Source: Mya arenaria (lineage: Eukaryota). From it: a stretch of 64,000 bases of DNA. This document shows, one piece after another, positions 5,114 to 57,700 of the stretch. The position numbers and the translations under genes were made by a program. The stretch spans positions 1,617,682-1,681,681 of the forward strand of contig NC_069127.1 in assembly GCF_026914265.1 (NCBI RefSeq), written 5' to 3'. Position 1 is the first letter of the stretch; each line of letters begins with the position of its first letter. Under the pieces are notes generated by a model. That model was given only the letters and a program-made list of their open reading frames with translations, was not told the DNA's origin and did not search any database.

Positions 5114-8100
5114 GTGAGTGCACACAGAACAGGTGCTAAATATAGACCACACTAGTACTAGTTTCAGACCCAACCCAGGGGTATGATAATAATGACATTT
5201 GATAGTATCTATATGAATATGTCATTGAAGATGAATCTCTCGGCTGATTGCTCCTTATGGAGATCAGACTTCCCATGCAATTTTAAACAACTTGGTAATC
5301 ACACACCTTATATGATTTAAATACCTTGAAATTACTAGGCCATTTTAATGCTGTCAAAGATTTCATATAAAATATACTTTGTTACATTTTCCCTGTAAAA
5401 CTCAACAAATTCATAACAAGAAGTGAATGTGATCTGTGATCGAAATATGTTTAATATATGACAAATAAACTAATTTATTAGAGGTTATTAAAATTTATTG
5501 ATATATGAAATTTAGATACAGATAATAAGATATATAACATTTTCTGTTGAGGATTCAACGTTAACCTTCTTAGAAATGACTGTTGTTTGTACGACTTCTC
5601 AAGATAATGTTTATCATGTGGTACACATAGCAGAATTCATCAACATAGTTGATAATCACTTATTAAATAAAATGTCTATACATTAATTAGTCAAGTTGTT
5701 ATTTAAAAATATAAGAAGTACATTTATTATTTTGATTTCTTAGTTTAAACAAATGAACAGATTAAAGAGAATTGTTCATGGTTTGTATAATTAACTTCTT
5801 ACGAAAAAGAAATGTTACATAATAAAGTGAAGCAAATAATTAGTGTTAAAACTAAGATACTGACAGCTGGAATCCTTCAACAAATGCTGATATTTGCTCA
5901 AATATTTGAACACCACAATTTTGAAAAACATTAGCAGTGTGATTCCCCAAAGTGTTGCTGTGTGATTAGTTGATCACTTTATTAAATGTGATGTTAACAA
6001 TGTCTTTGATAAAGGTTAAAATATCAATCTTGTGTTGTCTTTGTGACTGAGAGGTTAAAGCTTCATTTTTCTAATTTTTTCCTGACTGTACAGTGTACTA
6101 GCATGGGTTCGCTCCCCACGAAAACCAGAATATTTTTTAATACTCTTATTGGTTTTTTTTCTACAATTTCGGTATCAAAGAGTGAAATAATAATAAAATA
6201 AGTGTTTTCAGATGCATTTTGGGAAAACTAGTTTTGGTCCAAAAACATAAGCGAGTCCCTTTAAAATGATAATAATAATGAAATTATAAAGTTTAAAAGT
6301 TGAAATTCTTGAAAAAAAATGCATATTTATAATCAAATAACAGAATATAAATGAGATCATATTTATTTTGTGTATAAATATAACAAAAACAACTGATTTG
6401 TAATCTAATGAATCAAAGAATCAGACTTTTGCATGTAGAGGCATTCTTTTTTGGGGGGACTTATTCTAATGATGTCTGCTTTGACTACAGGACATGAAGC
6501 TGCCTCAGGGCAACTACCGGTCCACTATAAATGTTGGGTCAGATTCCGGCCGACCCCAGGTAGAGATGACGGACCTGCCAACAGAGAAGCCTAGGGCCCC
6601 AGTGGACGAGCCATTTCCACTACCAGAGATCCCTCACCTTCCCAGGGTTGAAACAGGTCATGATGTCATGAACCTTACACTGCATCAGGTATGTCACTAT
6701 CTGTACTGTGCATTAAACAAAATAGCAAGGCAGTATCTATTAGTGCTGCAAGATAGCCATCTATATGAATGGAATATCCACTATACTCCCTGCAATTTTG
6801 AAATTCATCCTCAAATTTAGACTAAAGTCAACTTGTTTTACTTTGAGTCAAATTTATGTGCAACTCAAGTTACCTGTGTTGGGGGAAAATGGAACTAACT
6901 GCAAATTGCTATGTTGTTACCATGAAAATCAAACCCTCACTCTGCAGACAAAAACACTTCCATATTGCTATAAAAGCTGGCTTAATCATCGGTCAGTTAG
7001 AATGTGGGGCTCTTTATAAATATTAAAAATGAAGTCAAAGTTTATTTGGAATATTTTTTTTACCCCAGTGTGCAAGAAATGGGGATGTAAAGAGCTGCAA
7101 GATCTTGTTGAGCAACATGGGCGGGAATGTGAAGAAAAAGATAAATGTTCGAGATGAAGATAACCTCACCCCGCTCCACTACGCTGCACGATACAACCAG
7201 CTCAACGTCCTCAAACTACTCATTGATAACCATGCAGGTTTATTATTTTTAAAAATCTTATAAAACTAAAATGTAACACAACATAGTTTAGTAGAGGATG
7301 TGCCCATTTCTAAACATTATATTAATTTTAAAGAAGGCAATGAGTATTACATATTAATGTTGATGGATTATTTTGGAGACTGATGATTTATCGGGAACAT
7401 AAATAAAGACTTGATATTCATGATTGTTTTTTTATGTCATTGTTTTGAAAATCAGATGACCATCTAGATGAACACAGTTTGTGCTTGGATATATTTTATT
7501 GAAAAAGACTATAAACTAGTGTAAATAAGTGGTGTCTTCTGCAGATTTGAATGCACGTGATGATGAGGACCTGACAGCCCTGCACTATGCTGCCCGATTT
7601 AAGAGGGAAACCAAGAACAGACGAGTGGATGGAGATGAAGACCAACCACAGGTATGTACTGTCAGGCAGGGCAGGAGTGTCCTGTCAGGTAGGGCAGGTA
7701 TATACTGGGGAGGTATGTACCGTCAGGTAGGGCAGGTATGTTCAAGGAAGAAGGATGGGTATGTACTGTAAGGTAGAGCAGGTATGTACTGCCAGGTAGG
7801 GCAGGTATGAACTGCCAGGTAGGGCAGGTATGTACTGCCAGGAAGGGCAGGTATGTACCGTCAGGTGGGCAGGTATGTACTGTCAGGTGGAGCAGGTATG
7901 TACTGTCAGGTAGGGCAGGTATGTACTGCCAGGAAGGGCAGATATGTGCTGTCAGGAAGAGCAGGTATTTTCTGCCAGGTAGGGCAGGTATGTACTGTCA
8001 TGTGGAGCAGGTATGTACTGTCATATGGAGCAGGTATGTACTATCAGGTAGGGCAGGTATGTACTGTCAGGTGGAGCAGGTATGTACTGTCAGGTAGGGC

Positions 8101-11100
8101 AGGTATGTACTGCCAGGAAGGGCAGGTATGTACTGTCAGGTAGGGCAGGTATTTTCTGCCAGGTAGGGATGGTATGTAGTCAGGAAGGGCAGGTATGTAC
8201 TGTCAGGTGGAATATGTATGTGCTGTCAGGTAGGGCAGGTATGTACTGCCTGGTTGAGCAAGTATGTACTGTCAGGTCATGTTTGGGTGGTAGTCGGTGT
8301 TTACAAATGACCATAGGGTATAAAAGGTCATGTGGGGGTGGTAGACTGTTTTGACACATGGCTGTCAGATAAAAGAGGTCATGTAGGTTGTTATACATGA
8401 CTATCAGGTTCAAGAGGTCATGAATGTGTGGTAGTCACTTGTTACACATGGCTGTCACATATAAGAGGTCATGAAGGAGTGGTAGTCACTTGTTACACAT
8501 GGCTGTCACATACAAGAGGGCGTGAAGGGGTGGTAGTCAGTTATCACACATGGCTGTCAGCTACAAGAGGTCATGAAGGGGTGGTAGTAAGTTATCACAC
8601 ATGGCTGTCAGCTACAAGAGGTCATGAATGGGTGGTAGTCAGTTATCACACATGTCTGTCAGCTACAAGAGGGCATGAATGGGTGGTAGTCACTTGTTAC
8701 ACATGGCTGTCACATATAAGAGGCCATGAAGGGGTGGTAGACAGTTATCACACATGGCTGTCACATACAAGAGGCCATGAAGGGGTGGTAGTCACTTGTT
8801 ACACATGGCTGTCACATACAAGAGGGCATGAAGGGGTGGTAGTCAGTTATCACACATGGCTGTCACATACAAGAGGCCATGAAGGGGTGGTATTCACTTG
8901 TTACACATGGCTGTCAGCTACAAGAGGTCATGAAGGGGCAGAAGTCAGTTATCACACATGGCTGTCACATACAAGAGGCCATGAAGTGGTGGTATTCACT
9001 TGTTACACATGGGTGTCAGCTACAAGAGGTCATGAAGGGGCAGAAGTCAGTTATCACACATGGCTGTCACATACAAGAGGTCATGAAGGGGTGGTAGGCA
9101 GTTATCACACATGACTGTCACATACAAGAGGCCATGAAGGGGTGGTAGTCAGTTATCACACATGGCTGTCACATACAAGAGGTCATGAAGGGGTGGTAGT
9201 CAGTTATCACACATGACTGTCACATACAAGAGGTCATTAAGGGGTGGTAGTCAGTTATCACACATGGCTGTCACATACAAGAGAGTAAAGCCCATAACTC
9301 TAATAATTGTAAACTTTTTTCACCTTTTTTGATTGAACCCCACCCCCAGTCAATTGTTGATGTTTGCTCATATTTCTGGGTTATTTCCTACTTTGAGTAG
9401 CAGTTATATAAGTATACAGTTATATAAGTACTCTCCTATTCCTTGTCAGGAGAATGGCGGTATGCCCCACAGTGACACAGCTGAGGACCTGGAGTCCCAG
9501 ACAAGCGTAATATCGTACCTTGTGACAAAAGGCTCAGATGTGAACGTGCGTGACCTTTATGGACAGACACCGCTACACTATGCCTGCATGAGAGCCAACG
9601 AGGTCGCCTGTCGTGAGCTGCTGAAGTACAGACAAGTCAACATTGAGGTGTGTCAATCTAGACTTCTGAGTTCCTAGAAAACAAGTTTTCTTAAAGCATA
9701 CAAAATTCAAATGAGATTCATCAATATCAATTTAAAAATAATTGCTCTTATACACAGCTTTTGTTTTTTAATTCAGTAGCTGTCAGGTGTGTTAAAGATA
9801 TAAGTGTACATAATATAAAATGAAAAATCATCGTTAATTGACAATTAAAAGCCCATTAGCTGCCACTTTAATGTAATCAAATGTAAATCATACATTTCAA
9901 AATATATAAATGGGATATGTTGTAATATGAGATTATTTCATAAAAGTATTCTTAGAAAGAAAAATTCACAGTTAAACTGTAAAAAAAAATGCTTTGATGG
10001 CTGCAGGGATCGAACCCTGGTCCTTTCGTTCAGCAGGTGGGAAATAATAAAATGCTTGTTTATTAAAATGTCATCCCTTCCAATTAATGGCCAGACTGCT
10101 GGCCTTTATAGACATCTTGATTGATGAACATCTTTGCTTCCTACCCCTTTCCTATATGCCTGGCGCCTGGCATGAAAGCAATTAGTACCCATTATTCAAT
10201 AGCTGCTGCATCACAGCAACTGGCCAAATCAGAACAAGACCCTTGTGAGACTTGAAACGTCATCAGGTGGATGGCTTTACCAACATGCAACAGTGACAGA
10301 TGACTGCATAATGTTTTATGGAACTTATTAATACAAATTATAGTTTTGCGAGAATTTAAAATATTAGAGAAATAGTTGCTGTATTCAAACTTTTATGTTA
10401 CTGTGAGTTACTTGAACATACTTTTGTCAACTAATTTCTCTAGTCAGCAGGTCAATAAGAGGTGTTTAAATGGCCTAATGCAATCAGTAATTCATTTATT
10501 TATTGGTAAATATAAACAAATACACAGGTTATACAAGAGTGTACCGCTTAAATGTATTGCATTATAATTGTCAATACTGTGGCAATTATGAAATGTTATT
10601 GTACACCAACAAGTGGCTGTATTCCTTCTTTATGAGATAATAACCAGAATGAACCTTGTTCACTAGGCAGCAGACAAGCAGGGTATGACACCCCTACACA
10701 TGGCCTCCTCCCACCATCAGACACTCATCGTGAAGATGTTGATCCGATCAGGGGCTAATCTGCGATGTAAAGATGACGAGGACACGACTCCCCTACATGC
10801 TGCGTGTACGGAGGGCAGCATCGAGATTGTGCGCAAGCTGTTCAATGCAGGTGCTAAATTGGATGGATGGGTGACAATCCAAAGTGTAAGAGTCATTTTA
10901 TATTATTTAGATAACAGGAAAGTATTATACCACGTGTTTGCTTTTTTACTTTTTTAACCTAGTTTTTTTTTGTGTCATTTCAATTTTGCAGATTTTGCTA
11001 TCCAGTATGGTCTGACAACTGATAGCTTTTGAGGATTGGTTAATCTCCGAACTATTTTGATTTCATTAAGAACATCCTTGTGATTTGATATATCATGTTT

Positions 11101-14100
11101 GTAATAAATGTTCACATATTTCTTTGGTACTTATAAATAATTTGTTAAATAATGATGCATTTAATTAAACAAATGTTCATTAGATTTTCCAGTTCCTTCT
11201 TATGTTAGTGAATGTTGTAGGAATTGTTCTTCTTTGTTTACAGATGGTAACAGACAAGGACATTGATGGGAACACATGTCTGAGTCTGGCAGTGGAGAAC
11301 GGCCATTATGAGGTGGTCAAACTGTGTCTTGAGAAACGTAAGTAGCTGTGTGCTACATTATAATCTGAATCACATTTGTTGCATTTTATGTAACCATATG
11401 TATCTTCACCAAAAGAAATAGAAATGATAAAATATATATTTTAATATTAAGTAAGCTTATCAACTAATCTGAGTGTCAGCTTGTCAATTGTGTTTAAGGT
11501 CATTCAAGTGTAAAAGGTTCAGATATAGCATGTATGAGATATACCCAAATAAGAGGCAATTCTGTGTAGTTAGCTCACTACTACCACTGACAATCCTAAC
11601 ATGCTATTTGTCATTCAGGAGCTGATGTGAACACCCCTAACACTATCTACATGTATCCGCTGCACCTTGCCGCGGTGAACGGGGACCTACGTATTGTACG
11701 CCTGCTCATAGAGCACAATGCTCGTATTGACGCCCTCAACAACGAGCAGGCTACGCCACTGCACAAGGCCGCTCAGTACAACCACATACAGGTGGTCGAG
11801 TTTCTTGTGGACAGGTGAGCAGGTCATTATTAAACAGGCCAAGGTTGAATTTCTTTCAACTTTTTTGGCAGAATTTTATCTTTTTAACTTTTGGTATTTT
11901 TCAGCATAGAATTATTTTGTGTATTGTTTACTATTTGTATGATTAGTATTGTCATAATTATCATTTCAATTTCATTCTTACAAAAAATGGGAAACAAATG
12001 TGACAGTAGTGAGATAAGTGTTAAACTCCAGTCAAAGTTGTCATAGCAATAATACTTAAATCAACAGCACAAACTCATCCATTGTGAGGGGGAGATTGAT
12101 CTAGTTGTAAGTTGTCTGACTCGATTCCACAGGAGAAAGTTCTCGTGGCCTCTAAAAAAAGGCACCAGCTATAGTCAATCTAAAATAATGTAAACTAACT
12201 AAGCTCTGCACCACAGGGAAGCTGACATTGAGCGTCGCGATGAGGAGAACTACACGCCATTGTTACTGGCTAGCGTGTACGGACGTGCACCCACTGTTGA
12301 CCTTCTCATCCAGAAGGAGGCTGATATCTCTGCTGTCGACAAGAATGACAAGACAGCCATTTTTCTAGCAGCTGAGGAGAACCAGCTGTCTGCGCTGGAG
12401 GTTTGAATAAAATTGATGTAAATTAGTGTTTACCATTCACAAGTATTGAACAAGGGGAAGATTTTGTTTTCATTTCTTCAAAGTGTTATCTTCTGCAAGT
12501 ATCATATTTCATTATTAAATTTTATAAAATGAAGATAATTTGTATTGGTCTTTAGCAAGATAGATACTGGTGAATGTGTTGAATATACAATGTATGTTGT
12601 ATATGTGTACATTCATGTATTTCAGGCTTTGTTGAAGTATGACCCAGTGAAGAATCTCATTAACACCAGTGATCGCTATGACAACGATCCTCTCCACATT
12701 GCTGCCATGAAGGGTTATCTGCATATTGTCAGGGTGTGTGGCAAATGATGTTATGTCTTAATATTCAAGATTTATAAGATCTACATGAACACTGTCATCA
12801 TAATGTATTTGTATTCTGTTAACAATCAGCAAATGACTGTTTACAATCTAACCACAAATTGATCTTACAAAGTGGAATTTTGGAGTATGATATATAAAGT
12901 GCATACCCTACGGTACCTTGTTGGTGCCTGATTGTATTGTGGGACATGCTGTACATGTTTTTAAGAACTCTTCCATATTACAGTGCCTGTTGAAGAATGG
13001 TGCCGATCTGGACAGTAAGAACGAGGAGGAGCAAACCCCGCTTCACCTGGCTGCTAAGTTTGGGAGAACCAAGTATGCTATTACTTTTATTATTACATCA
13101 TAAATGAACATGCCATCATAAAATAACATCATTATATATATATGATCTGAGAGTAAAATAGAAATTTGTTACTGCTGCTGTTTCTTTCATGCACAGTTGG
13201 TGCATTTTTCTTAAGTTAAATATTATTTGTTCACTGAACTATCTGTTTTTTTGGAGTAAAAGTTTTACCAAACAATCAGTTAATTTTTGTTTCTTGCACT
13301 GTTTGAATTAGGATGTTGATACATAGAAGTACGTGTTTCCTATCTACCCTTTAGCATAGTACGTGAGCTGGTGACACAGGATAAGAACTCTGTAAATGAC
13401 GAAGATGAGAGTTCCAACACGGCCCTTCATCTTGCGGCACTTGCAGGTCACGCCAAAGTCGCGGAGGTCCTGCTGGAGTTCGGAGCTGATGTTGCTGCAA
13501 GGTATGTAGACATGCTCAAACAGTGACTAGAAAAACACATTCAAATTGTCTCTCTCCCTGTTCAAATGAGACTGGAAGCCAGTTGCATAGAGGTAGCACT
13601 TTTTAAAGTACCACATATGAGCCCCATTTACCTAAAGCAATACCCAGATCATAAAAGGGCTTATAGAACAATTTAATTAATAAAAAAGAGTTTTACGGCT
13701 CATTTCAAATGCAAATTTTCTATGCGACGCTATTCACATGGCAGCACAATTGTAGCCATGGGAACCTATGATTATGAGCAGTTTTGAGAAAATTATAAAA
13801 TATAACACTGGTGTGTGTTTTAGGAATGTGAGTATGTGGACCCCACTGGACTGTGCGGCAGCCAAGGGTTGGATGAAGACGGCAAAGGTTCTCCTGGAAG
13901 CTGACTCCCCTATTGACCCTATGGACAAGGCAAAGGTATGATGGCTTAACTAGGGTTGGGATGGACAAGGCAATGGTATGATGGCTTAACTAGGGTTGGG
14001 ATGGACAAGGCATAGGTATGATGGCTTAACTAGGGTTGGGATGGACAAGGTAAAGGTATGATGGCTTAACTAGGGTTGGGATGGACAAGGCAAAGGTATG

Positions 14101-17100
14101 ATGGCTTAACTAAGGTTGGGATGGACAAAGGAAAGGTATGATGGCTTAACTAGGGTTGGGATGGACAAGGCAAAGGTATGATGGCTTAACTAAGGCTGGG
14201 ATGGACAAGGTAAAGGTATGATGGCTTAACTAGGGTTGGGATGGACAAGGCAAAGGTATGATGGCTTAACTAGGGTTGGGATGGACAAGGCAATGGTATG
14301 ATGGCTTAACTAGGGTTGGGATGGATAAGGCAATGGTATGATGGCTTAACTAGGGTTGGGATGGACAAGGCAATGGTATGATGGCTTAACTAGGGTTGGG
14401 ATGGACAAGGCAAAGGTATGATGGCTTAACTAGGGTTGGGTTGGACAAGGCAAAGGTATGATGGCTTAACTAGGGTTGGGATGGACAAGGCAAAGGTATG
14501 ATGGCTTAACTAGGGTTGGGATGGACAAGGCAAAGGTATGATGGCTTAACTAGGGTTGGGATGGACAAGGTAAAGGTTTGATGGCTTAACTAGGGTTGGG
14601 ATGGACAAGGCAAAGGTATGATGGCTTAACTAAGGTTGGGATGGACAAGGCAAAGGTATGATGGCTTGACTAGGATTGGCATGGACAAGGCAAAGGTATG
14701 ATGGCTTGACTAGGGTTGGGATGGACAAGGCAAAGGTATGATGGCTTAACTAGGGTTGGGATGGACAAGGCAAAGGTATGATGGCTTAACTAAGATTGGG
14801 ATGGACAAGACAAAGGTATGATGGCTTAACTAGGGTTGGGACGAAAAAGGCAATGATATGATGGCTTAACTAGGGTTGGGATGGACAAGGCAAAGGTATG
14901 ATGGCTTACCTAAGGTTGGGATGGATAAGGCAATGGTATGATGGCTCAACCAGGGTTGGGATGGACTGAGGTTTTCTTTTAAACTATAAGAGTGAGATTG
15001 AGCTGAATTATCCTGGTTTCATTTAAGTGAAACATACCACAAGTGTCATCCTTTTTACGATGTCACACTGAGAGCAAAAGTATGAAATTAAATGAAAAGT
15101 AAATAAAACTTACCTTCACATATATGCATGTAGCACATAACATATAAGTGTTTCTTCTTATTTGTAGACAACACCCCTTCACTTAGCTGCCAGATATGGT
15201 CACGTCGAGGTTATCAACCTTCTCCTTGACTGGGACGCCGATGTGGAACAACGAGACTCCGATGGCAACAACTGCCTTGATCTTGCAATCGACCATAACA
15301 ACTCGTATGATATTTGCTTTGTTTTCTTTGTGTAAAACTCATCTAGGCCATATAAAATTGTTTTTATGTTTAGGGTCAATCCTTATTATGAAAACTTATA
15401 TAGCTTTCCTGAAAAATCAGACAAACCCCCCCAAAAAACATTACTAAATGAGTGACATCCTATGTAGATTCTCAATTGTCAGATTGTATTTCCACTGCAA
15501 AATGGGTTCAAATTAAACTTGTAATTAAGTGTGTTGATCATGGGAGTCAAACAGAATGCTTCTTTTTCTGATATCAAACGCCAAGAATATTAGAACAAAC
15601 TATGAAGCATGTGGTTTACACTTGTGTTCTATAGTTGGAATAATAGACAAAGGTGATTAAAAATCTTCAGCAACATTGATGATCATATAAAATGTTTTTC
15701 AATCGTGAAGACACTAAACATAGAAACGATTGGGTATGGGTCTCTGTGTTTACCCCGGTACTTAAAGTTTTCTTTCACTTTTACACTGATGTTATTGCAT
15801 TATTGTATATAACCACTCAACTAACATTAAGGATCCATAACTGGGCATAAACAATCTTTGATGTTGAAATTGCATACTAACATATTTTGATGCAGAACAC
15901 CTGATTTCTAACAATTATCTGTTTCGTAGATTGTCAACAAACATGTAGAGTGACATGTTCTCTAATGTAACAATTTAATCAACAACTACAATGAAATTCA
16001 TAAACAAGTTCATTTTATAAATGACCAGTTGTTTATTTTGAAGAATAAATAAAATACAAGATTGCACTAGTTCAAAATGACTGCCATTCCAGGAATGTAG
16101 CGACCGCGATCATCAAGTCTGACTACTGGCATGAGGCCCTACGCAACCACACCCTGGACCTCATTACCAACAGACATGACACGCCCATGAGGAAACTCAT
16201 CAGGAAAATGCCAGGCAAGACAAATGTCTTATACATGTATATGCCAGGATTGCTTATAAGGACTTTTATTTAAAGTATCAGGGTTCGAATTTAACTTTGA
16301 GGAGCACTCGCAAAATTTAGCGAGTGCATTTTGAGGCAACTCGCAAAATGACAAATCAACTTGCAATTTCATTATTTGCTTTATTCCCTTATAATATTGT
16401 CTTATTAAAGTAGGAATTAACACCTAAGACATATTATGAATATTAAAAAGTATCAATCTTGAGTGACTCGACTACTAGAACTTGTTGATGGCTTATTCTA
16501 TTTGGGGGTTATGGAAAGACTCGTCTGATGCTAGCAGCTTTTTGATAACAAAGCTGTCCAATAATTTGACATTGTTCACTTTGTATATTTACCCTCGCCA
16601 TCGGTTAATTTAAGACCCATTCGACAAGCACGCTACATATTTCATTAAGTCTATAAGTATTAAAAACAATAAAATAATAAATTTAAAATAAAAAAGCAAC
16701 AGTAAATGTAGCGTTGATACTTTGGACCATGAAATATATCGATCAACGAAGTCTATTCATTTTGACAGGATGATGGGGTTTACATATAGTGCGCAAAAGC
16801 GCTAAATTTAGCCAATGATTGAGCTAGGTGATTACGTCATTCGTATTTACTTTGTATTATGCACACCTCGGAGCATCCCGGAAAGATTCGAGATAAAACT
16901 TGGCCTTTTCCGTATTTGTTCTATTTTTGTAAACCTACTTGAGCGTGACTCCGTACTGTCTTCTTTATACCGGTAGTGTAAACATGCCACTTATAGGCTG
17001 TTTACACTCGACTACATATCGGAATTAAGTTCATGTTTATTCTACTTTCCTTTTAACATTTTGTGGTCTAGAAAAGCCACTCGCAGAATTTTGCGAGCTT

Positions 17101-42785: not shown

Positions 42786-45700
42786 CTGCGAAACACAAAG
42801 AGAAAAATATGAATTTGTTACTTGGCTACATACTTTATAATTATGTGCACTTAAGAGGCCAGAATGTGAGATTGTGAGCATCTTCTTAAATATTGTAACC
42901 AATATGTGTCTATAAAAATCATGGTATAGGCTGGATCCTGAGCTATTGGAATGGAACATGCACATGTGTTACTTACTAAACAGAGGACTGTGAAGCCAAC
43001 ACAAATGCTCGTCTGTGGTTTTCAGTTGCGAGGGCATAACTGAACAATGATTAAAGACAGAGTGATGGCCCTTGCTATACATGTGTGTACTGTCTTTCTC
43101 ATGTTGACAGCAATGTTAGCAATATGTCTAGCAAACTCCAGTTGAATAATTCAAACAATTTTTATTGATGGCCATAGTTAAAGTGTTTGCACAACAACCT
43201 CAACAATAGACAGACATGACAATATCGCCAACTTTTAAAAAACAGACAAGATAAACATAGCAATATTTAAAACATGAAATTGATATTGTTTGACATATTT
43301 TTCATTATTTTATTTTTTTTATGTATTTTATACATACACTTACTGGAGCTATGAATAAATAAACACTATAAAGTCTTACCGGAGTGTGAGATTTCTTTGC
43401 CTCTTTGAGGTCCCTGTGTAATGATTTGAGTGTTTCCTCAAGACGTGTCTGTTTGATGCGCAACATAGACGCTGCCTCTGCCTCAACCTCGAGTCGAGCT
43501 TGCTGCTCTCTCAGGTGTTTGATCATCACCTAGACGACAAAGAGGGTAAAAAATGTATGAAATATCCTAATGAACTACTGAAGATATGAATCTAATGCTA
43601 GGAGTATCTGAGGAGCTAGAGTTCTACTTTTATCCAGCTGAGGTAGATCAAGAAATCAGTTAATAAAACCAGGGCAGTAGTATCATCACAATTTACATAA
43701 CAGTCGAAAGAGGATGACCTTCATGAGAATGACTTTACAAATTTCTAGACAAAGAAATAAAAAAAGTTAAAAGAGTATTAGACAAAAAGAATACTTTTAA
43801 CTGACAAACGCTATGCACAAATATGAAACTAATTCTTAAACCACAACCTACCTCCTGAGTATCAACCTTGCTCTGCAATTCCGCCATCCTTGACGTTGAG
43901 TGTTCCAGGGCGTTCTGGGCAAGGAGACGCTTCACTTCCTGTTGGTGGGAGTCTCGCTGCTGTTCAAGACGTTCCTCGTATGCCTCCTGTGTACGGCGGA
44001 GTGCAGCCTCCCCCTCTGCCACAGCACGCTGGATGTCCACCCGACACTGACTAACTTCCAACTGTACCCGCTCCACCTGACAAATCACAAGCATAGTTTG
44101 TATGAACAATGATATCCAATAGTGCCCAGTTTACAATTTGCCCCAATATATTATTTTTTTCATTATATCAAGTATGCAATAAAAACAAAGAAATAAAGCA
44201 TTAATGTCACAATATCAAATGTGTTGATCGAAAGTTCTTAATTCATAATCCTAACTGTTCCCTCAGGCTATTGCTATATAAACACTATGTCTATAAACAC
44301 ACTATGGCTATATACAGGCATACATATCATAGACACTCATAACATATTTTTTGCACAGAATTTCATGTCCTTTCCATTGATATTTTACATCATAATAACA
44401 TTCATACCTTCATTTTGAGGTTATCATTTTCCTGGATGACCTCAGATATGTGTGTGTCCTGGAAGACCTTGGCGTCATATGTCTTCCCCTGTAGTTCAGA
44501 CGCCGAGGGAAGGGACGTAAACTCAGCTGCATCATCTCCCTTGTTACCTCCCCTGGCACCCAGCTTCCCGCGCTTGCCTGACAAATACACAGATAAAGTG
44601 TTATGATCATGCAACAACAAGGTTAGTAATGAATAACCAGCATGGTTGTTAAGAAAACAACTTCTGTAGTAAACAAAATTGACCAATTCAATAAGTACAT
44701 ACAGAAAGCTCACACCAGTGTCTGTTGGATTGTTTTTAGAACTTTAGAACTTAGAATCATTATTCCTTATCGCTCATTTATAAAGTAAATCATCTTTAAA
44801 ATTGGTAAAATCTATAATCTATATACCGGTCATCCGAATTAACCAAACTTTCTGTCATGTTTACCATTATCGCCAGTGATCGCGAGTTGTCTGTCCTTGC
44901 GTAGGCGATCTAGAGATTTCTGAAGGACCTGAATGTCATGGTCCTTACCCTCCACCTCCAACTGGAGAGTCTTAACAAGGGCACGCAACTCTGCCTCCGT
45001 CTCCTTTGTCTGAGACTCTGCTTTAGCTGCAAAGAAAGCCAAATAAACTGAAAATATTTTAACAACAGCAGTCATAGACTGTCATATCCCCAGCAGAATG
45101 AAGGATAGGATCCAGTTCACCTTTTGTTAAAGGATACCAATGAACAATAACAAAGCGCAATTACTCACAAAAAATGCATGCAGCAAAAGTTATGGTTCCT
45201 GTGCACTGCACTTCTCCTCAATTTGATCTATCTGTATGTGAAGTCAATTTCTTGAAGGCTATGTATGAAATTTAACAAAGCCCAATAACTAAAAACTAGA
45301 GCTGTCACAGGAGTGACGAATACCCCCAAATGCCGCCTGGACACATGAATGGCAAACCATTCCTTTGAAAAGAGGCCATAACTCCAAGGTTACTGCACAC
45401 TGCATCTTCTTTTATCATGCATGTCTTGTTTTATTTAAATCTGTTGAGTAATTTAGAAGTTACACTGCTGACAAGAAAAACTCTCCTTTCATGAGTTATC
45501 GTCCGGAAACCGTTTTTCTATTTTTAGTAACAGTGACCTTGACCTTGGCCCCACCAGCCCCAACATCGAACTTGACCTGTACATGTATCTTCTGATGTTA
45601 CACCTGTGTACCAAAAATTGTTCAAATCTGTCTAGCCTTTCATGAGTTATCGTCCGGAAACCGTTTTTCTATTTTTAGTAACAGTGACCTTGACCTTGGC

Positions 45701-48700
45701 CCCACCAGCCCCAATATCAAACTTGACCTGTATCTTCTGATGTTACACCTGTGCACCAAAAATTAATCAAATCTGTCTAGCCTTTCATGAGTTATCGTCT
45801 GGAAACCATGAAAACCGACAGACCGACCGACCGACAGACCGACCGACAAGCTCACTCCTATATACCCCCTCAAACTTCGTTTGTGGGGGTATAAAAATGC
45901 AGCTAGAGTTGGAGTTTTTGTGCACTGCACTTTTCTTCAAAGAAATATACCTGAATATAAAGTTTGAAGTCAATTCCTCAAAGACTTTTCGAGTTATGCT
46001 CCAGACAAAAAAATAAGTATGAAAATTAACAAAGGGCAATAATTTTAAAACAAATGCCAGCAGAATTATGTTTTTTGTGCACTGGACTTATCCTTTATGA
46101 GATCTCTCTCCATATGGAGTTTGAAGTCAATACCTGAAACACTTTTCAAGTTATTCTCCAGACAAGATTGCCTGGATGACTCACTTACCTACCATTACTA
46201 TATCCCCTTTGCCCTTGGCAGGGGATAAAAATATTTATCAGTACCATTATTCAATACATTCATTTGCTTTAGGAATCCCACCCAAGACAGATTCATGCAT
46301 ATCTCCCTAAAATACATAAACATGAGTGGCAATGTTATACAATCTCAAACTCTAAAATGCATATTATGAGAGTCAGTTTTGTCAAACAACAATAAAAACT
46401 AGTTACACATATGGCTAGTCAGACTACAAAAACAGCTAACTTTAGCAAAGCCATGAAATTACCATCAGATTTCTTGGCCTTAGATGCCTCTGCAATGAGC
46501 CTGTCAACCTCAGTCTGAAGGTCGCGGATCTGCTGCTTGTATCTTTCCCGCACGCTCTCCAGCTCACGCTCCAGAGCCACAGAGTGGGTGTGCGGGTGAA
46601 CATGGTCGGCTTGGCCCTGGTAGATGGATAGCTGAATCTCAAGCTCCTTGATACGCTCCTCATACTGCACCTGGAATGTAAGACCCTGGGTTGAATACAT
46701 GGAGATATACAGATACAGGTCACCAAGCAAGATTTCATACTAACTCACATATCGCAGTCCATGGATGAACCCTTTTGCTTTTAGGAATACTCATTAAGCA
46801 AGGAAGAATCAACTGTACTATTTCTGAAAACATACCATTCAGACACGCACTATTCAGATGCAAGCTTGAATACCATGTTATCATATTGGGAAATTTTGCA
46901 TGAGCACAACACCCAGACACACTAAAATTTAACACTGAAATAAAGCTGAATTTAGTTATACATGTGATAAAACAGTACCATTACATTGTTTTATATAACT
47001 ATTATCTAGCCAAGATACCAACATTCCACTCTGACAGGTGGTATCTTTGCTTGACTCTGCCATGCAGTGTCTTCATCTCCTGGGGTTGTATTCAACATTG
47101 TTCTTGTCCTTGTTCTTTGACACGCCTCAGTAATTCCACTCAGTCCATTGGCCAGTTATTTTTACAATCCAATCAAAACACTTGGATTCTAATCCTAAAG
47201 CTGCACGCTCACAGATTGAACGTTTAGACAACTTTTTTACTTTTTGTCTTGGAATGAGCCAATTTTTGCGAAAATCCATGGAAACCAGTTACATAAGACT
47301 GCTGACAAAAAATTAGTTCGCAGATTTTTATATTAAAGTTCAAAAATTGATGTTTTATGCATTTTCCTTAAACTGTTAGTAAAGGTTTAAGCAATAAAAC
47401 ATAATTTTCGAACGGAAATATGAAAATCTAGGATCTGATTTTTTGTCAGCAATTTTATATCATTGGTTTGAAGATATTTACGCAAAAATTTGCTTTTTCC
47501 CAGACAAAAAATAAAAAAAATGTAAAAATGGAATATCTGTGAGAGGCAGCTTTAACATCAAATAAAAATCTAAGGTAGTTATTGAATATAGCCCCAGATC
47601 TAATTGTTAATTTCCATAGTGAAATAAGCTGGCGATCACATACCTTGACACTATGGTACTTCTGTTCCACTCCACGGAGCAAGGTGTTTGTCTCTGTGTC
47701 TTTGCCCTCCAACTCCTTTTCTAGCTTGCTAACCCTGCTCTCCAGTACCTCTGTGTATGCTGTCCGCTGGTTGGCCTGCACATAGTTATTACATGTATTG
47801 GGTTACTATAGATTTGAATGGATAAAGGGGTGGTTTAATGTTTGGTTTTAGGCTTTGTGACTCAAGAAAATTTGTTTTTTTTGTAGGGTAGGCATAAACT
47901 GTAATTATTTACAGTAGCATATAATAATATCCAGAAATTGTTGCAATAATCAGATAGATCTTTGATTTGCGTACAAAATGCAACAATCAACTACATGTTC
48001 AACATGGACGATCAAATTTGCCAAATGGAAGTATGCCCAATGGTATAGTACATCCTCTATCTCTGTTACCCCACACAGCCATGTGGGGACAAAAGGTATG
48101 GCATACCTGGTTGTTGGTGTCGCCTGCAGCTGCCGCAGTCATCATAAGTGATTGGAGGGAGTTTGGATTGCGACGCTTCAGGATTGCCTCCATCTCCTTC
48201 ACCTATACACAAGGACAACAAACAATTAACAAAAATTTTGTGCTAAAATCACAAAGGTACATTTCAGGCTTTTTCTCTCCAATATACTATCATACAGGCC
48301 AATGAAACTTTTATAAATTAATCTTAATGTTGTCCATTAAGTTATAAATTATAATACGTATTTTGAAGACTGTTTAAACCTGTGTTAAACGTTCAGCAAA
48401 TAACACCCTGTGGAAACATTTAGGGTTACCTGTCTCTGAAGGTCCTGTATTTTCTTGGTGTCTCCTGCTCTCTCCCGCGCCCGCACCTTGCTATCCTCCA
48501 CACGCTTACCAGACTGGTAATAGAATAAACATGTTAACACATGAACCCATCTCAATAACATGTGTTTGAACAAATCAAGAATTTCAGTTAAATGTGAAAT
48601 GTCAAAAACTAAATTGAAAGTCTAACATCCAAAATAAATATTGCATAAACTGATTTTTAAAATTGATTTTCTTACTACTCAGAAATATAATATCAATTAT

Positions 48701-51700
48701 TGGATCATACAATATGTGTGTTGATTTAATGTGTGGCACCTCTAGCCCTGACTTTATTCTTATTTATCTGTTCACACATCAGCTTAAAAGTCATGCTCTG
48801 ATTGTCAAGAATGTCACAATAATTTTTTTTGAGGTATATTTGTATACACTATTATTCATGTGTACAATTATTAGTCAACATGATAAATAACTTCAATTTA
48901 TAAATCATACTACTATAAGAGTTTTTACTGTACTGACATCATGACATCATGTTATATAATAACTAATTGTAAAATCGACAAAAAAAAAAAAAGCCTTGTT
49001 TTGTTTTACATTGAAATAATCGCATGTTGAGAGTGTCAACAATTCGTTATACTGAAAACCACATCACACCACTCACCTCAGTTTGTAGTTCTTCCAACCT
49101 CATCTTGAGTCTGTGTATCTCGTCCTCGCGGGCCTTGACCTTGCGGGCCCCCTTGTCTAGTAACTCCTGGTTCTCTGCATACCACTTCAATTTCCCCTTC
49201 AACTTCTCCACCTCACCCTGGTACTGCCGCTCCAGTGCCTGATGTAGGAAAATAAATGATGAGCACGTATAAACTTGTATGTCAAATAGTTAACTTTAAA
49301 GGTATATTTGAAGGAGATTATTACTTGTTGTGTGGTGTTAACCATAATGGTCCAAGGTTGCTAATGTTAATTTAATGGTTGAAACAACTTGAATATTTAA
49401 AATTCATTTTTCTTTTCTGATCTAACATTATCACAGGTTTCAAAAAAACTAGCCCTGTTATTGAAGTGATAATCAACTTCATCTTTAGACCTCAGACACA
49501 AACGAAACCCTACATATCATGTAGATAGACCTCCCACACAAACCAACTGCACATACCATGGCCTCCTCAGACTTGAGGGTCTTGTTCTGTTCTATTGTTT
49601 TCTGCAGCTGTTCTCTCTCCAACACAAGTTTTTCAACATGTTTCTCAAGCTCAGTGCGCGAGTGCTGCAGGACGCCCATCTCCCGTGACAAGGCGTCACA
49701 TGTTTGCTACAAATTCATAGCAAAGTTATGATAAAGTTTTATAGGTTGAGGTGCCAAAATTATACTTCAAACAAAAAGCATATAAAACCATTCTGCAGTC
49801 ACAGTATTTTGTCTCGCACCCAGGATGTAAAGGGGGTAGGATGACATTGAACAATTGTTATGTGTTTCACTTCATGAAAGGGATCACATATGCAATATAA
49901 TATATATATATGTAGAATTTATCACTATTGCTATATTGAACTTTTAAAATTTGAATGTACAACAGCTAACATCCTATGAAAAGAATAATATTAATCAGCA
50001 TTATGACCAAATGATTGCCACCACAGCCAATTTGCCCCACCCTTGCCTATGTGCCCCACCCTAGCCTATGTAACCTACCCTAGCCTGTCCAAGCTCTCCC
50101 TCCAGGTGTGCTACGGCCTCGCCTGTATTCCCTGCAGCGAGCCTCTGCTGTGCAGCTGGCCCCGTTATCAGCCCCTTGTTCTGGTACTCAGCCTCCTTCT
50201 TTTCAAGCTGGGTCCTGGAACCGGTACATGAACATGTAATGCTTATTTAGGACAATGGTGAAACATGACATGATACTTGTACATCTGTCTCTGACTTTAA
50301 GCAATGTCAACTATCAAATAGGCATTTTTACTACAATTTTGTTCCACTCTATGAAACTACATTGTTCATGGATTGTAACATTCTGTATAGGAATATGGAA
50401 GTGTTGACTGCTGCAAACTAATGTTTTAATTTTAACTTGACAAAACTAATGCAATAAAACAAAATGAAAAAAAAATGTTCTAAAAGCAACAAACTTGGAG
50501 AGCTTAGCGTATACAGTAAAACAAGACAGGGTTAAAGGGTTATAGACAGGGGAAAATAAATGGGAAGCACAAATCAACTTTATATAAGTAATTAGACATT
50601 TCACTCAATTAATTACACTAATATATAAATTTGACTTAACATTAAGACATTTTTCTAGCCATTTAAGAAAATTTAGCATTGTTCTGATCAAATCACAGCA
50701 ACTCAAACCATACTTACAGCCTCTCTTTATCAATTTTTATTTTTCTACAAAATGAAAAGACACAATGGGCAACACAAACAGAACATTCTTAGGCCTACTG
50801 GTACCAGTACCACATATATCACATTGAAATCATACAACAAGTCTTATAGTAGTAATTAAACATCCATGTAGCTGAAAATGTCAGCACAGTTACTGTTAAT
50901 TATCACCAGGATTGCACTAGGTAATGCAACATGCAAGCAGTTTGCGTCACATGCTGCTTTACATGCTGTAAATGAATCCAAAGTACATGTGCAAGGACAC
51001 CCCTGAACTCCCTGAGGTTTTGTGCAGCTCGTGTGTGGAGTTACTATAACACTCCTTAAGCCCTTAATATCTGAGGTTTGGGGCCGCAATGAGGACATCC
51101 CTGCACCCTTGTACTGGATGATTTGAGGCCCCTGTAAGACTGGCTGGACGACTTCTGTACGTCAAGTACCTGAGGTTTGTTGAATCTGTGATGACACCCC
51201 TGCAAACCCCATACCATTGGCCACTGTGAGGACACACCTGTATCTCCCATACTAATGATTTGTGGCCTCTTTGAGGAGACCCCTGTATCTCCCATACCAA
51301 TGGTCTGTACAATACCCTGTACCTGAGGTTTGATGACTGCGACACTTTACTAGAGCATCCTGCACCCCTGTATCCAAGGTTTGTGGCCTTTTTGAGGAGT
51401 TACTTGAACACCCCTACATTCCATACATGAGGTCTGCAGTCTCTGTAAGGACACTCTTGCGCCCGATGTATGTGGCCTGTGTAAATACACCCCTGAACCT
51501 CTGCCCTTCATACCGGAAGTTTGCACCTGCCCTACCCCCTTTGTACCAGAGGTTAGCAGCCTTCTGTGAGCCCCCCCCCAACTTTTTAGCAGAGGTTTGC
51601 ATATACATCCTCCCCCTCATATCAGAGGTTTGCAGCCGTCTGTGAGGCCATACCTGCCACCCCCCTTTCGTACAAGAGGTTTGAGTCCATCCCTGCCCAC

Positions 51701-54700
51701 ATTCCTTTCATACTGGTGGTTCGCAGCCTTAGTGAGGCCATCCCTGTCCCTCCCCCACTCTTTATAACAGAGGTTAGTGGCCTCTGTGAGGTCAACCCTG
51801 CACCCCGCATACCTGAGGTTAGCTGCTTCTGTGAGGAGTTTCTGATTCTCCTGGAACATCTGGTCCTCCAGCTGCTTGCTCTGCTGACGGAGATTCTTCA
51901 TCTCATTGTACAGACGCTTGTTCTCCTATATACGAACAAGCATGGGAAAGTGAGGGAATATTTGGTAAAAATATCAATAGGGATTTCTTACTTCTGCAAC
52001 CTGTGTCTCTGTGTCAATGATTTTGGCCAAAACCCATTGTTTCTTTTTGTTTACAAAATGTTCATAAAAAACATTACTGTTAACACCAATTAGGACTGTT
52101 TTCATTATATCTACTAACAACTTTACAATGTGGTAAGTTTTCTTACACTGTAACCCTGCCCTGTGTGTTCATACCTGCTGGTACCCAGCTATGAGTGTTT
52201 CTTGCTCCTTGACTTCCTTCTGTAGTCCCTCAAGCTGGTCCTTATCGAGACCCTCCAAGGGTTCCCCTGCCAGCACTCGTCTCTTAACCACACCATCACC
52301 CTCACCAGATATCTGGACATGAGAAAAATCATGATATTTGTTAATGCAAGTTTAACTGATTTGGTAAACACTTTGAAAAACATATCATCAATGAAATTTG
52401 GCAATAGAAAATAAAGGTTGAACCTAAAAGAATATATGCATTTTTTATATGACTATATGTTTTCAAAGCTGTTAGTTAATAGGGGTAAGCAGTAAGTCCT
52501 AAACTTCAGAAAGGCTATGGCACAAATAAAACTTTTTAACCATTTCATGAAAAATGACATTAATATATGTATAGACAAATGCTACATGTATTCTACAGTA
52601 CTATGTTTACATTAAACTCAGTCAAGGTCTATGCCAAGCCATGCACCAACACATGCACTGACCTTGGCCTTGAACACAACCACACACACTGACCTTGAAC
52701 ACCCACACCCGCGCTGACCTTGGCCTTCAACAACCCCACATGAACACTGACCTTTGCCTTCAACAACCCACACACACACTGAACTTGGCCTTGAACACCC
52801 CCCCCCACACACACACACACCGACCTTGAGCACCCACACACACACACACACTGACCTTGGCCTTGAGCACAAAGTTCTCTTGTCTGAGTTCAGCCAACTG
52901 CTGTTCATACTCCAGTTTCTGTCCCTCCAGCTGCCGCTCATAGCTCCGTGCCTGGGATTCCAACTCGCCTAGGGAATGGGTACACAAAAAATAACAGTTG
53001 AAATGCAAATAATGACCATAGAGCAAATTTATCATGCAAAGAATAACAGTCATGCAGCAATGCAGCAAATAAATTACTACAGTCGAACCCCGTTGGCTCG
53101 AATTCCTAGGGACTGGCTACATAACCTCGAGCCTCGGAAATTTTGAGCCAAGAGGGAATGTTTACATTCAGTATATAGAAATAGGTCCCTTACATCCAGT
53201 TCGAGCCAACGAGGAATTCGAGCCAAGCGAGTTCGAGCCAACAGGGTTCAAATGTCCTCACATTATAACATTTTTGCAGCATATATCATTCATGCAGCAA
53301 AAAAATGCCACGCAGCAAATAATTATAATGAAACAAATTAAATAAAGAACTAAACATATACTTTGAGAATCTATAACTGACAGAAATTTTAATTAAATTG
53401 TTAGTCGTAAGGAACAAAAACAATTAACTAAATATTTAACAGTAACAAACAGAATGTGTGGCTCATGACTGAGTTTGTAATAAAATATTATTTGTCATGA
53501 ATAAGTACAACATATCTTCAAACACACAAAATAAATCACTTTAGAACAACCAAATACATTCCAGGACCTTTAAGGCTGGCTATAACCTGGTCCTTATCTT
53601 CCTCTGGCTGTTCCTTCTCCTTAAAACTGGCTGACACTGAGGGCTCATCCTCTGAATACTTCACCTGCACAAAATTTCAAGATATTGTATATGTTGGATA
53701 TTTTTTATGTTAAAATACTCTCTTTTATTGAAGATATCTATTATGGAAAGAAATGTATTGAACAAAACTGTGCAACATTTTCAATTAATTAAATATTCTT
53801 AATGATTACATCAAATACAGAATATTTTCAAACAAATACCATTTACATTCTTACATTATCTCTAATCACAAACAAAAGCTGATTTGGGTATAAATTCAAA
53901 GAAAACAAAAGTAACCAAACAAATGCTCCACCCGTCCACGGACAGTACCTGTGGTGCCGGCATGCCAGCAAAATGGTCTTTGATATACTTGGCAAAGGAC
54001 TCAACAGATGCATCCAGCTGAGTTGCTGCCATGGTCCCCAGCTTCACCTGCCGTGATGACTGGCTCCCTGCATGATGGAAACTTACTGTGATATTTGTTT
54101 TCAAGTACCAATATCAATGGCCCTTATTGATATGCCAATATACTCACACCAAGAGCTCCATTGAATAAAAATTCCAACACTTAATAATTTTTTTTTTTTT
54201 TTCTCACTTTCAGTGATTTGTGCATTCTCATAAAATGGAATATTTTGACAAAAAGCATGACTGGAGATGAATAACACTGAAATCTTCAACACAAGCTGAT
54301 ATTGTCTGACAATGCATTATTCTGTATATTAGTTAACATACCAATGATTTTGTTCTTGGCTATTTCTGCAGGGCTCCATAGCTTTTGAGACAGCCCCTTC
54401 TTGGTCTTTTTCCCCTCCACATCGGAAGGGCCAGCCCTGCCGACCTTGGCTGGGGACTGGGCTGGGGAGGCACTAGTGTCCTTATATCCTGAAGATTAAA
54501 ACATCAAGTATGGAATAACAGAAAATATTTACAAAACTGAATCAAATTATATTGCCTTAGAATGATAATCAAAGGTCAAGCGAAGAACTGATATAAGAAA
54601 ACTAATCATTCCTGTTTAAGTACTGATAAAATAAAGCAATTCTTTGTATGCTGTTGTATTACGGCCTCTGCACATTATCATAATAATATAACAGCCAGAG

Positions 54701-57700
54701 TATCAACCTTCCTGAGTGCCATGTGACCTGGAGTACCCAAGCAGTTCCTTCTCACGGTCCCTATTTTTGTCCCGTGGAGGTTTTGGGGGGCTGAATGGCT
54801 GACCGTATCCTGAACTCTTCACGGCCTTGTGCTTCCACTTCAGTGTTTCAGAATAGTCTGAAAACACAATTGGAACACGATCGTATTGCGTCTTTCAGAA
54901 AACATTTACATAATGTAGTATTGGCAATGCTAAGTTAGTGTAATTTTTTTTGTGTGTGTGTGTTTATGCTAAATGAGCGCAAGAGGGTAAATGAGCAAAT
55001 CTATGAAAATAATACTGAAAATCAGTTTAATTCTATACAAAAAGTCCCAAAATGTAAATATTTTAAAGTGGAATACTTAAGAGCTCTCACTCATTCAGTG
55101 TTTTCAAAAAAAGTGTGTAAGTAGAATCATGCATAATAAAGAAAATATCACAACAGAAAGTCAATAAAGGTAAAAAGGTCAAGAAAAATTAATTCAAGGG
55201 GCTATATTCACATAACATATTAGTGAAAAACCAGCAATGTTTCACAATAATTTCCAACAAAATGCTTTATGAATATTGCCCCAGAGGTACACTGAGGTAC
55301 CGTGGTAAATGTCATGTTGTATCTAACTAACACTTACCAATTTTCATGGGAGATGAGGACCGGGATCTGTCAAGTGTAGATCCAAGGCCCTTCTTTCTAC
55401 CATCTTTTGGTGATTTACCCTTGCCGGACCTCTTTTTCTCATCCTTCCCCACCTTCTTCTTACCCCTGCCCCTCTCTGTCACACTCTGCCAGCAGACAAC
55501 AATAACTTACAAGATACATTATACAGAATCCTTTATTTAATGTTTGATATATAATCATACACAAACAAATAACAACAGCTCTATTAGCTAATATCTGAAA
55601 GAAAGACTGACTAAACATATACTGTGTGCAACATGTAATTCAGTTGTAAAACAGTTATAACATGTGCTTTTAAAAAATAATGTTTAATGTTAAGGATGTT
55701 GCTTGGATTTAAAATTGTTCTATCAAACTGGAATTTCCCAATTCAATACCATTTTACACCCAGGAAAGGATGAACATGTTTTCTTGTAAGAACAGAATAT
55801 CCATTACTATGTTCATCACAAAAGAACCTTAAAACTTTTTATTAAATGGGATATGAAAATATGAAGGAAAAGTATGACAATGTTAAGTTAAGCATGAAGT
55901 TTAAGAAACAAAAATTGCATTGTATAAAAGTTTCAGAAAGAAAGTTTCAGAATCTCATCCAGCTTTTTTACACTTATGAAATGCATTTTTTTGGTCAAAA
56001 ATTAAATTGTTAAGGCCGAGTGATTCAGATAGGGATGAGATCTTAAAGCACATCTCGTCATATCCCTAGTAATGTGAACAAAACTATAGTTGGTTTATAC
56101 TAACTCGTTTTAGCTTGATTTTGCACAATTTTGAAAGATAATATTAATCATTCTAGTCCCTTTTCTAGGCAGAAAACAGTATCGTGTCCTTTTTGAGAGG
56201 TCATGGTTACGCCACTAGACCACTCTCACCCTGGTGAGGATCGAACCCATGACCTCTTGTGTGAGAGGCAGTCAGCTATACCACTAGACCACTCTCACCC
56301 TGGTGTGGATCGAACCCATGACCTCTTGTGTGAGAGGCAGTCACCTATACCACTAGACCACTCTCACCCTGGTGTGGATCGAACCCATGACCTCTTGTGT
56401 GAGAGGCAGTCACCACTCGACCACTCTCACCCTCAAACACTAGTTAGCCACACACTGTGCACAATATGATTCATTGTTGTTACGTAACTGTTAAATGTTT
56501 TGCATGCATGTACGATCAAAGAAATACTTACCACATTTACAATTAATCATCATCAACATGGGTTTTTAAATTTAAGTTAGGGACACACATGTCAGTAAAT
56601 AACATTGGTTACCAGACATCGAACACCATTAATATTTCACACACTGCATCAACTTGCATGGCAATAAACTTACATGTCTCGCTTGAAAAGCTGGGTCTTC
56701 CGACTAAATAAAACATTTATTTCTGCATAACACATGCAAATAAAATAACGTAAGATGCACTTTTACCAAAATGTATAAAATTCAAAATGAAAATAAAGAT
56801 TACTTTAGTATTTAGGTCACATATATGTATATAAGTCCAATGGAGGCCAGTATCCCACATAACTAAACATTCAATGTTGTTATGTCAAATGACCCAATAA
56901 AAAAATGAACTAATAATACACATTTAATTTACATTCAATTTACATAGTTTTTATGATAGTTTAAATTTTTTATAGAACCTCCAGTAAGAGTCACCCACCA
57001 CTTCAATAACAGGTTGGTACATCTCAGTATCCTCTGTGTGGGACGTGTCAAATCCCCCCCGGTACGAACTGTCGCCACGTTGTGAACTGTATGAATTCTC
57101 TCCTCCTCTGTACAAAAAACAACAGGTTAATTACAAGCACAATTGTCCCGTCCAGTCAAAGTATAAATATATGTCTGCTAGAAACTAAACACTTTTTCTT
57201 GTCACTTTGGATTTTTACTTGTGATATTGGAAACTTTCCTACAAAAAGACACCAAATGCTGTATAAATCAAAACGAGTTCATTTATGAAAGAATTTTTGT
57301 CACTTTTCAACACTTTCAACCATTTTTTCCCTGATCTTATGGAACAAAGTGCCAATGAAAGAAACAACAGGCATTTTTCGCATTCAAAAGATTACCATAT
57401 AACAGTAAGATATTGGGCCTAAGACAACGATGTATGTTGGGAGGCCTATTTCCGTGAGCACAGCAAAGTACAATGGCGCCCTACATGAAACAGAAAGGGC
57501 ACACCTTAACCACAGGCCAAGGAAGCCCGCTCCATTTCCTGTAGATTGTCAAAACTGGAGACTAACTTATTTGTGTTTGTTAGTGCGTTCACCAGAATTG
57601 ATATACATAAACTTATTGAACAACAACTTTTGAAAAATCCTCAACTGTCATTGGTGCCCTCGAAAACTGCAAACATAACGTATATGCTACCTTTTACTAC

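Follow-up and report, generated by a model that had tools for sequence, protein, structure and literature searches.

Why should an intron of a conserved gene carry a long run of degenerate copies of the exon end that precedes it? This question was raised by a 64,000-nucleotide stretch of the Mya arenaria genome (contig NC_069127.1, positions 1,617,682 to 1,681,681; analyzed as one haplotype and referred to as the window, whose own numbering is used throughout). A preliminary description of the window, made by reading its letters, had placed at 51060-51925 a degenerate minus-strand array copying the junction between an exon and its donor site, and we followed this up in the gene concerned, a homologue of CEP162. 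The analysis pointed, with a probability of roughly 85%, to an old and eroded minisatellite whose founder unit spanned the exon-intron boundary, of the class known in amphioxus as 'mirage' minisatellites.

The array in the CEP162 intron

In a protein search, the best matches of the minus-strand gene were vertebrate CEP162 (38-40% identity), and tblastn with CEP162 homologues showed that its exons spanned at least 52948 to 42519, the beginning of the gene lying outside the window. When exon models were built by chaining open reading frames through splice sites, the junction in question was CAGCTAACCTCAG|GTATGC, with the last exon base at 51813 and the G of the donor at 51812 (minus strand). Joining 51813 to 50214 yielded ...ANLR|TQLEK, collinear with vertebrate CEP162, and the copied exon tail encoded ...ENQKLLTEAANLR, which aligned with ...ENQNLFSELASLK and ENQRLLSELAFSK of the vertebrate proteins. 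The exon, the founder unit (referred to as U0), the downstream units (U1-U18, numbered outward from the exon), and the rest of the intron were arranged as follows; donor strength is given here and below as a weight-matrix score.

51813..51925, minus strand: CEP162 coding exon of 113 nt (exon 20 of the preliminary description), encoding ENKRLYNEMKNLRQQSKQLEDQMFQENQKLLTEAANL(R) (open reading frame and splice chaining; tblastn with 50-54% identity; protein alignment)
51792..51838, minus strand: founder unit U0, 26 nt of exon end (CTCCTCACAGAAGCAGCTAACCTCAG) plus 21 nt of intron (GTATGCGGGGTGCAGGGTTGA), with the donor GT at 51812-51811 (score 5.0)
51450..51791, minus strand: proximal block, U1-U8, more uniform, in which the truncated units U3, U5, and U7 alternate with full-length units
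50997..51449, minus strand: distal block, U9-U18, more eroded, in which several units retain exon-like AACCTCAG|GTA
50215..50996, minus strand: non-repetitive rest of the intron, ~780 nt, 33% GC, with no G-run of length three or more; the following exon begins at 50214

The 18 contiguous degenerate units, head to tail and 30-56 nt each, followed U0 without a gap from 51791 to ~50997 on the minus strand, and the array took up slightly more than half of the intron (1598 nt). The earlier account of a degenerate array directly after CAGCTAACCTCAG|GTATGC was thus borne out in its essentials. Its bounds needed correction, the true span running from 51838 to ~50997: 51839-51925 was plain exon, and two further units were located beyond 51060. 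Its count of about 14 units of 40-60 bp gave way to ~18 copies of 30-56 nt. The pattern common to the downstream units was CCTCACAGAGGCYRCAAACCTCWG-GTATG-(G-rich)-GCAGGGRTGK. The GC content of the array was 0.52 (0.33 in the rest of the intron) with a GC skew of +0.18, and runs of three or more G occurred 3.6 times per 100 nt, against 0.12 for C-runs. The exact motif GGGCAGG was found in only two units (51698 and 51532), near-variants such as GTGCAGGG being common. Tandem Repeats Finder (TRF) with loose settings assigned the array a period of 54 and 61% matches.

Several comparisons showed that the array was real and local. AAACCTCAGGTA, with up to two mismatches, occurred 17 times on both strands of the window, and 11 of these sites were within 51009-51821 on the minus strand; in 100 shuffles of the entire window the mean was 6.5, and none reached 17. 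When 60-nt tiles of both strands of the entire window were ranked by their likeness to U0, the 17 top-ranked tiles were all within 51040-51880 on the minus strand. In alignments with U0, 17 of the 18 units exceeded the 95th percentile of 3000 control tiles from the CEP162 gene itself. The exon-derived 26 nt alone brought 12 of the 18 units above this cut-off (Mann-Whitney p=7e-10), and the intron-derived 21 nt alone also matched the units (p=1.5e-7). Since 17 of the 18 units beat the controls, they were closer to the exon tail than random intronic sequence was, as claimed in the preliminary description. A profile of the units (nhmmer) gave no match with E<1 outside 51453-51836 on either strand of the 64 kb. 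In the array, the sites matched by the motif and by the profile kept to one register and to a single strand. Other copies of the locus were not matched in a metagenome scan with an exon 23-mer, nor in exact-protein look-ups with the open reading frame of the last exon and three alternative starts.

Origin, function, and age

The array would have begun as a short tandem duplication that started ~25-33 nt before the exon end and, running across the 5' splice site, took in ~21 nt of G-rich intron. Amplification, possibly by replication slippage or unequal exchange, would have followed in at least two phases, during which the older units moved outward from the exon and, later, a variant unit multiplied beside it. 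The most upstream copy would be the real exon end, changing at synonymous sites only because selection on the protein holds it, and the downstream copies, all intronic, would drift freely and decay once amplification had stopped. The array may have been tolerated because the spliceosome takes the most upstream of reiterated donors.

Seeding at the junction, as proposed earlier, was supported by recurrence. We scored the splice junctions of all modeled introns (26 of CEP162 and 22 of TRPA1, the other gene in the window) by a statistic S that measures self-copies of each junction no more than 400 nt away: 5 of the 48 donors carried downstream copies of their own junction, and none of the 48 acceptors did. 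Acceptor copies would sit upstream of the real acceptor and compete with it, while donor copies downstream would be harmless, and this competition may explain the donor bias.

Unit lengths were irregular, and the donor GT was neither preferentially kept nor lost (in 15 aligned units, G at +1 was kept in 10 and T at +2 in 14; retention was 0.78 in a separate alignment of the units), so that no sign of function was apparent; the array is most likely a neutral by-product, probably without a function. Selection against cryptic donors was considered and rejected because GT was lost no faster than the other unit positions. Two GT sites within the array were at least as strong as the authentic donor:

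51646..51661, minus strand: pseudo-donor GGCAG|GTATGG (G at 51653), score 5.2, in frame; splicing there would lengthen the exon by 159 nt (53 codons) without a stop
51237, minus strand: pseudo-donor GT, score 6.3, out of frame

The site at 51653 could mislead gene predictors or give a minor isoform. Most of the other pseudo-donors of the array were out of frame or were followed by stop codons.

These sites bear on the proposal that the array functions in splicing, as decoy or reserve sites for binding spliceosomal U1, as G-run intronic enhancers, or as an alternative 5' splice site such as 51653. This was improbable, in spite of the retention of GT at the homologous position in many units, the dense G-runs, the two sites scoring 5.2 and 6.3 (one of them in frame and stop-free) against 5.0 for the authentic donor, and the precedent of human IFI6 and CBS, where the initial one or two pseudo-sites of comparable arrays are used for splicing (PMC1557585). 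The units were heavily eroded, and their irregular lengths were not multiples of three; both strong GT sites originated within the G-rich stretch of the unit, away from the donor-homologous position; an open frame of 53 codons has a chance of roughly 10% by our arithmetic; and vertebrate CEP162 had no insertion at this junction in the protein alignment.

The direction of descent had also to be settled. The exon end is identical to the first unit, and anatomy alone gives no direction, so an intronic repeat might have come first, with the exon end and donor being recruited from one of its units (exonisation). We regard this as very unlikely. The copied codons ...MFQENQKLLTEAANLR were within a block conserved with vertebrate CEP162 and matched ...MFKENQNLFSELASLK and ...MFLENQRLLSELAFSK in the protein alignment; because they align, the exon tail long predates the array, which indicates that the exon came first and that the array is derived from its tail. 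The same pattern was found at four other conserved exon ends. Moreover, within the repeated part, the exon differed from the unit majority only at exon-tail positions 12, 15, and 18, the third positions of three successive codons, with every difference synonymous: GAA in the exon and GAG in the units, GCA and GCY (GCC or GCT), and GCT and GCA, respectively. The chance of three differences all falling at third positions was C(8,3)/C(24,3) = 56/2024 = 0.028 by our arithmetic. Because these differences are purely synonymous, as if the exon were the constrained lineage, the array seems to have kept an earlier state of the exon, which would itself have drifted at silent sites. In the pairwise score matrix, U0 was the unit with the highest mean similarity to the distal units, and thus fits a conserved ancestor.

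A dispersed satellite or transposon-borne repeat inserted beside the exon, its likeness to the exon being accidental, was similarly implausible. Approximately 26% of the window was tandem repeat and some arrays looked transposon-derived; however, no second copy of the unit was present in the 64 kb on either strand, the likeness extended over 24-33 nt of coding sequence and held for the exon part alone, and the array was seamless with the exon. Chance resemblance in a G-rich, low-complexity intron, with which the silence of TRF on this array at default settings would agree, was refuted by the motif enrichment over shuffles, the tile ranking, and the control-tile p values down to 7e-10.

The junction-spanning origin left the history of the units to be read from their divergence. 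A smooth increase in divergence with distance from the exon, as expected in the preliminary description, was not found: the alignment score to U0 did not correlate significantly with the unit index (rho=-0.15). Identity over aligned columns retained a weak trend (rho=-0.44, p=0.067) that was stepwise rather than smooth, with mean identities to U0 of 81% for U1-U8 and 74% for U9-U18 (p about 0.02). The unit closest to U0 was the sixth (92% identity), and not the adjoining one. Mean mutual scores were ~40 among the proximal full-length units and ~24 among the distal units. Most proximal units had CTCTG, whereas the exon and several distal units had CTCAG, a change at donor position -2. AGTAACT preceded U10 and U18 and corresponded to exon positions -33 to -27 (AGAAACT); the older unit therefore extended further into the exon. 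Because the proximal units were more uniform and shared CTCTG, and because two distal units kept these seven extra exon bases, this CEP162 junction was probably amplified in two or more rounds, the later one taking place beside the exon. U12 and U13 were a local duplicate (84% matches by TRF with loose settings), which their sequences indicate to be more recent than both rounds. The view that this is an older instance of the array type seen in TRPA1 held up: values ranged from ~61% (TRF) to 74-81% identity with many indels, in comparison with 93% matches in TRPA1.

Several points weigh against the interpretation of the CEP162 array as a decayed, functionless junction minisatellite. The contrast between donors and acceptors (5 vs 0 of 48) was marginal alone (Fisher, ~0.03, one-sided), and the synonymous-site signal was based on three positions. 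The donor GT was kept in about 10-14 aligned units, no less than the neighboring positions, and the strong, in-frame pseudo-donor at 51653 could yield an isoform with 53 additional residues. The use of the authentic donor at 51812 was deduced from protein homology only, and the comparison was confined to a single genome window.

Arrays at other donors and G-rich intron starts

TRPA1 was identified by best matches that were 45-61% identical and came from assorted invertebrates. The five donors with downstream copies of their own junction, in order of S, were as follows; no acceptor of the 48 scored was above S=22.

13921..14966, plus strand: young TRPA1 array at donor 13936 (S=60), a 40-bp unit (exon tail, 15 nt; intron, 25 nt) in 26 near-perfect copies, 93% matches, ATGGACAAGGCAAAG|GTATGATGGCTTAACTAGGGTTGGG
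52640..52870, minus strand: CEP162 array at donor 52855 (S=50), two exons upstream of the array described above (exon ...ENFVLKAK), a ~32-bp unit repeated ~7 times and formed by exon tail and donor, GTGCTCAAGGCCAAG|GTCAGTGTGTG
7650..9283, plus strand: complex TRPA1 array of 1.6 kb at donor 7652 (S=36), beginning exactly at the donor CAG|GTATGTACTGTCAGGYAGGG, with 23-bp units and then 51-bp units
50997..51838, minus strand: the CEP162 array described above, at donor 51812 (S=24)
50015..50088, minus strand: array at the following CEP162 donor (...GELGQAR, G at 50078; S=23), ~4 copies of a 19-bp unit, ACAGGCTAGG|GTAGGTTA

The unit of the young TRPA1 array was also read in the sequence as ATGGACAAGGCAAAG|GTATGATGG..., and the donor of the complex TRPA1 array as CAG|GTATGTAC and CAG|GTATGTACTGTCAGG. 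The upstream CEP162 units also read CTCAAGGCCAAG|GTCAGTGTG... and CTCAAGGCCAAG|GTCAGTGTGTG..., and this array graded into a (GT)n tract. At 50015-50088, the unit took in about 10 nt of exon tail, with ~3 copies beyond the founder. Two other large arrays were located inside the two gene spans (45485-45850 and 56210-56480), and neither adjoined an exon. With random births over the 36 kb of gene sequence, ~4% of arrays would start within 15 nt of a donor; five of seven did so, with a probability of ~2e-6 by our arithmetic.

Junction arrays at the CEP162 donors 52174 and 49556 were rejected as too weak, their S values (16 and 15) being at the background level. The corresponding segments, 52136-52203 and 49490-49570 (both minus strand), perhaps hold one or two heavily eroded junction copies each; the former was reported by TRF with loose settings. 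A CEP162 coding exon at 52894-52969 (minus strand) contained an imperfect 33-bp tandem duplication of its own (2.3 copies, 70% matches), equivalent to an 11-residue coiled-coil repeat (..SYERQLEGQ / KLEYEQQLAEL..).

The five arrays had a GC content of 47-56%, in comparison with 32% in the intron background, showed an excess of G over C on the coding strand (skew +0.18 to +0.59), and had almost no C-runs. Runs of three or more G occurred 2.5-6.4 times per 100 nt in the arrays and 0.44 times in the other 43 introns. This bias extended to the intron starts: G accounted for 40-52% of the first 25 nt in the five array-bearing introns and 22 +/- 9% elsewhere (p=3e-4), and these introns ranked among the eight G-richest intron starts. 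G-rich intron starts appear to predispose to junction arrays. Hairpin formation by the units was rejected as a common cause because its z-scores, between -2.1 and +2.2 in four arrays, showed no shared signal, and none of the five arrays contained a canonical G-quadruplex motif (four runs of G3 or more with loops of up to 7 nt).

About one donor in ten within the window carried a junction array, and the ages of these arrays were very different. It is conceivable, if doubtful, that donors with a G-rich intron start are recurrent birth hot spots of minisatellites in this genome, with a specific mechanism, perhaps tied to transcription or replication, acting on the G-rich non-template strand in place of random birth filtered by selection. 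If so, old arrays would store ancestral synonymous states of the copied exons, and these might be used for dating array births and reading past codon usage.

Relation to known repeats and other repeats of the window

The class to which we assign the CEP162 array has already been described, as the mirage minisatellites of amphioxus and the junction-spanning repeats of humans, and the present array is an unusually old case. Mirages are found in the amphioxus genes for Adh3, the globins BflGb6 and BflGb9, troponin C (TnC), and PGBD5, where they duplicate splice sites and leave the messenger RNA undisturbed (PMC3087553; PMC3902484); they were called possibly general in cephalochordates, with the mechanism unclear (PMC3087553). 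The CEP162 array shared their features: the units are arranged in tandem, the first of them contains the real exon-intron boundary, many units (not all) repeat the splice signal, and several genes per genome are affected. Unit size was also similar, at 30-56 bp against 10-72 bp for the Adh3 mirage, a range taken from Canestro et al. (2002, Nucleic Acids Res 30:2871) as relayed in PMC3087553. On the other hand, most published mirages are young, with nearly perfect repeats (81-100% identity in BflGb6), whereas the CEP162 array was strongly eroded with two age classes. Mirages are apparently silent in splicing, as the CEP162 array may be. The globin mirages include acceptor-side cases, none of which was seen in this window. 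The literature consulted yielded no genome-wide count of mirages, their treatment being gene by gene.

Human junction-spanning repeats include those of F7 intron 7 (37 bp), CBS intron 13 (31 bp), IFI6 (6-16) intron 2 (a minisatellite), LMNB2, and PDGF, and in F7 intron 7 the most upstream of five to nine identical donors alone was experimentally shown to be used (PMC1557585). As in the CEP162 array, their first monomer consists of an exon end and an intron start (4 + 33 bp in F7), so that the authentic donor is followed by pseudo-donors, and the intron start of F7 (UGG/gugggu) is likewise G-rich. The human repeats are polymorphic and near-identical, and their splicing has been tested; the CEP162 copies had low identity. 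The exon share of the CEP162 unit (26-33 nt) was far longer than that of the human repeats. In arrays of the IFI6 type, which provide alternative donors, the unit length is a multiple of three and keeps the frame, unlike the irregular units of the CEP162 array.

Minisatellites in general offered a looser parallel. The core of the classical GC-rich type, attributed to Jeffreys et al. in 1985, is reportedly GGGCAGGAXG. Like the CEP162 array, classical minisatellites have units of tens of bp, are GC-rich, and show a purine/G strand asymmetry; unlike it, they are not defined by an exon junction. The core-like motif GGGCAGG occurred in two units of the CEP162 array and about 15 times in the 7650-9283 array, in its 23-bp units. 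In the model of Rogers, introns or exons are created by tandem duplication across AG|GT proto-splice sites (PMC3087553). This model shares with the CEP162 array the duplication, within a gene, of a segment with a splice signal; however, no sign of a created intron or exon was apparent in CEP162, whose protein alignment had no insertion.

Taken alone, the CEP162 array matters little: it adds a further, decayed case to the known junction-spanning minisatellites. What gives it value is the series of five donors in 64 kb with different ages and G-rich intron starts. The eroded array shows that junction repeats can survive for long enough to register synonymous changes of the exon they copied, and such a record provides a simple, testable way of ordering or dating array births. 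Caution is also needed in gene prediction: the array holds donor-like sites as strong as the real donor.

The window was rich in other tandem repeats: ~16.4 kb of the 64 kb (26%) was in arrays of at least 60 bp (TRF with loose settings), an unusually high minisatellite load for genic sequence. At 56212-56441, a 69-bp unit (x3.3, 94% matches) contained a box resembling transfer RNA (tRNA) (GGTTCGATCC, minus strand), suggesting a fragment of a tRNA-derived short interspersed nuclear element; ARAGORN and Rfam gave no match there, nor did the Rfam and tRNA scans elsewhere in the window. The repeats at 40913-42025 (324 bp x3), just beyond the 3' end of CEP162, and at 45485-45807 (151 bp x2.2), within a CEP162 intron, both contained GACCTTGACCTT(T)G and possibly belong to one dispersed element family. 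Downstream of TRPA1, 27390-27864 (plus strand) consisted of 12.8 copies of a 37-bp unit (93% matches) that included CAGTAAGGTCC. An intergenic G/T-rich array of 2.2 kb occupied 31279-33499 with a period of 165 bp (~13 copies, 85% matches). Between the 3' ends of TRPA1 and CEP162, a 4-kb array at 36264-40306 comprised ~168 copies of a 24-bp unit (AGCACCGTGTCCCTATTGTCCGTT; 80% matches) and was open in several reading frames on both strands.

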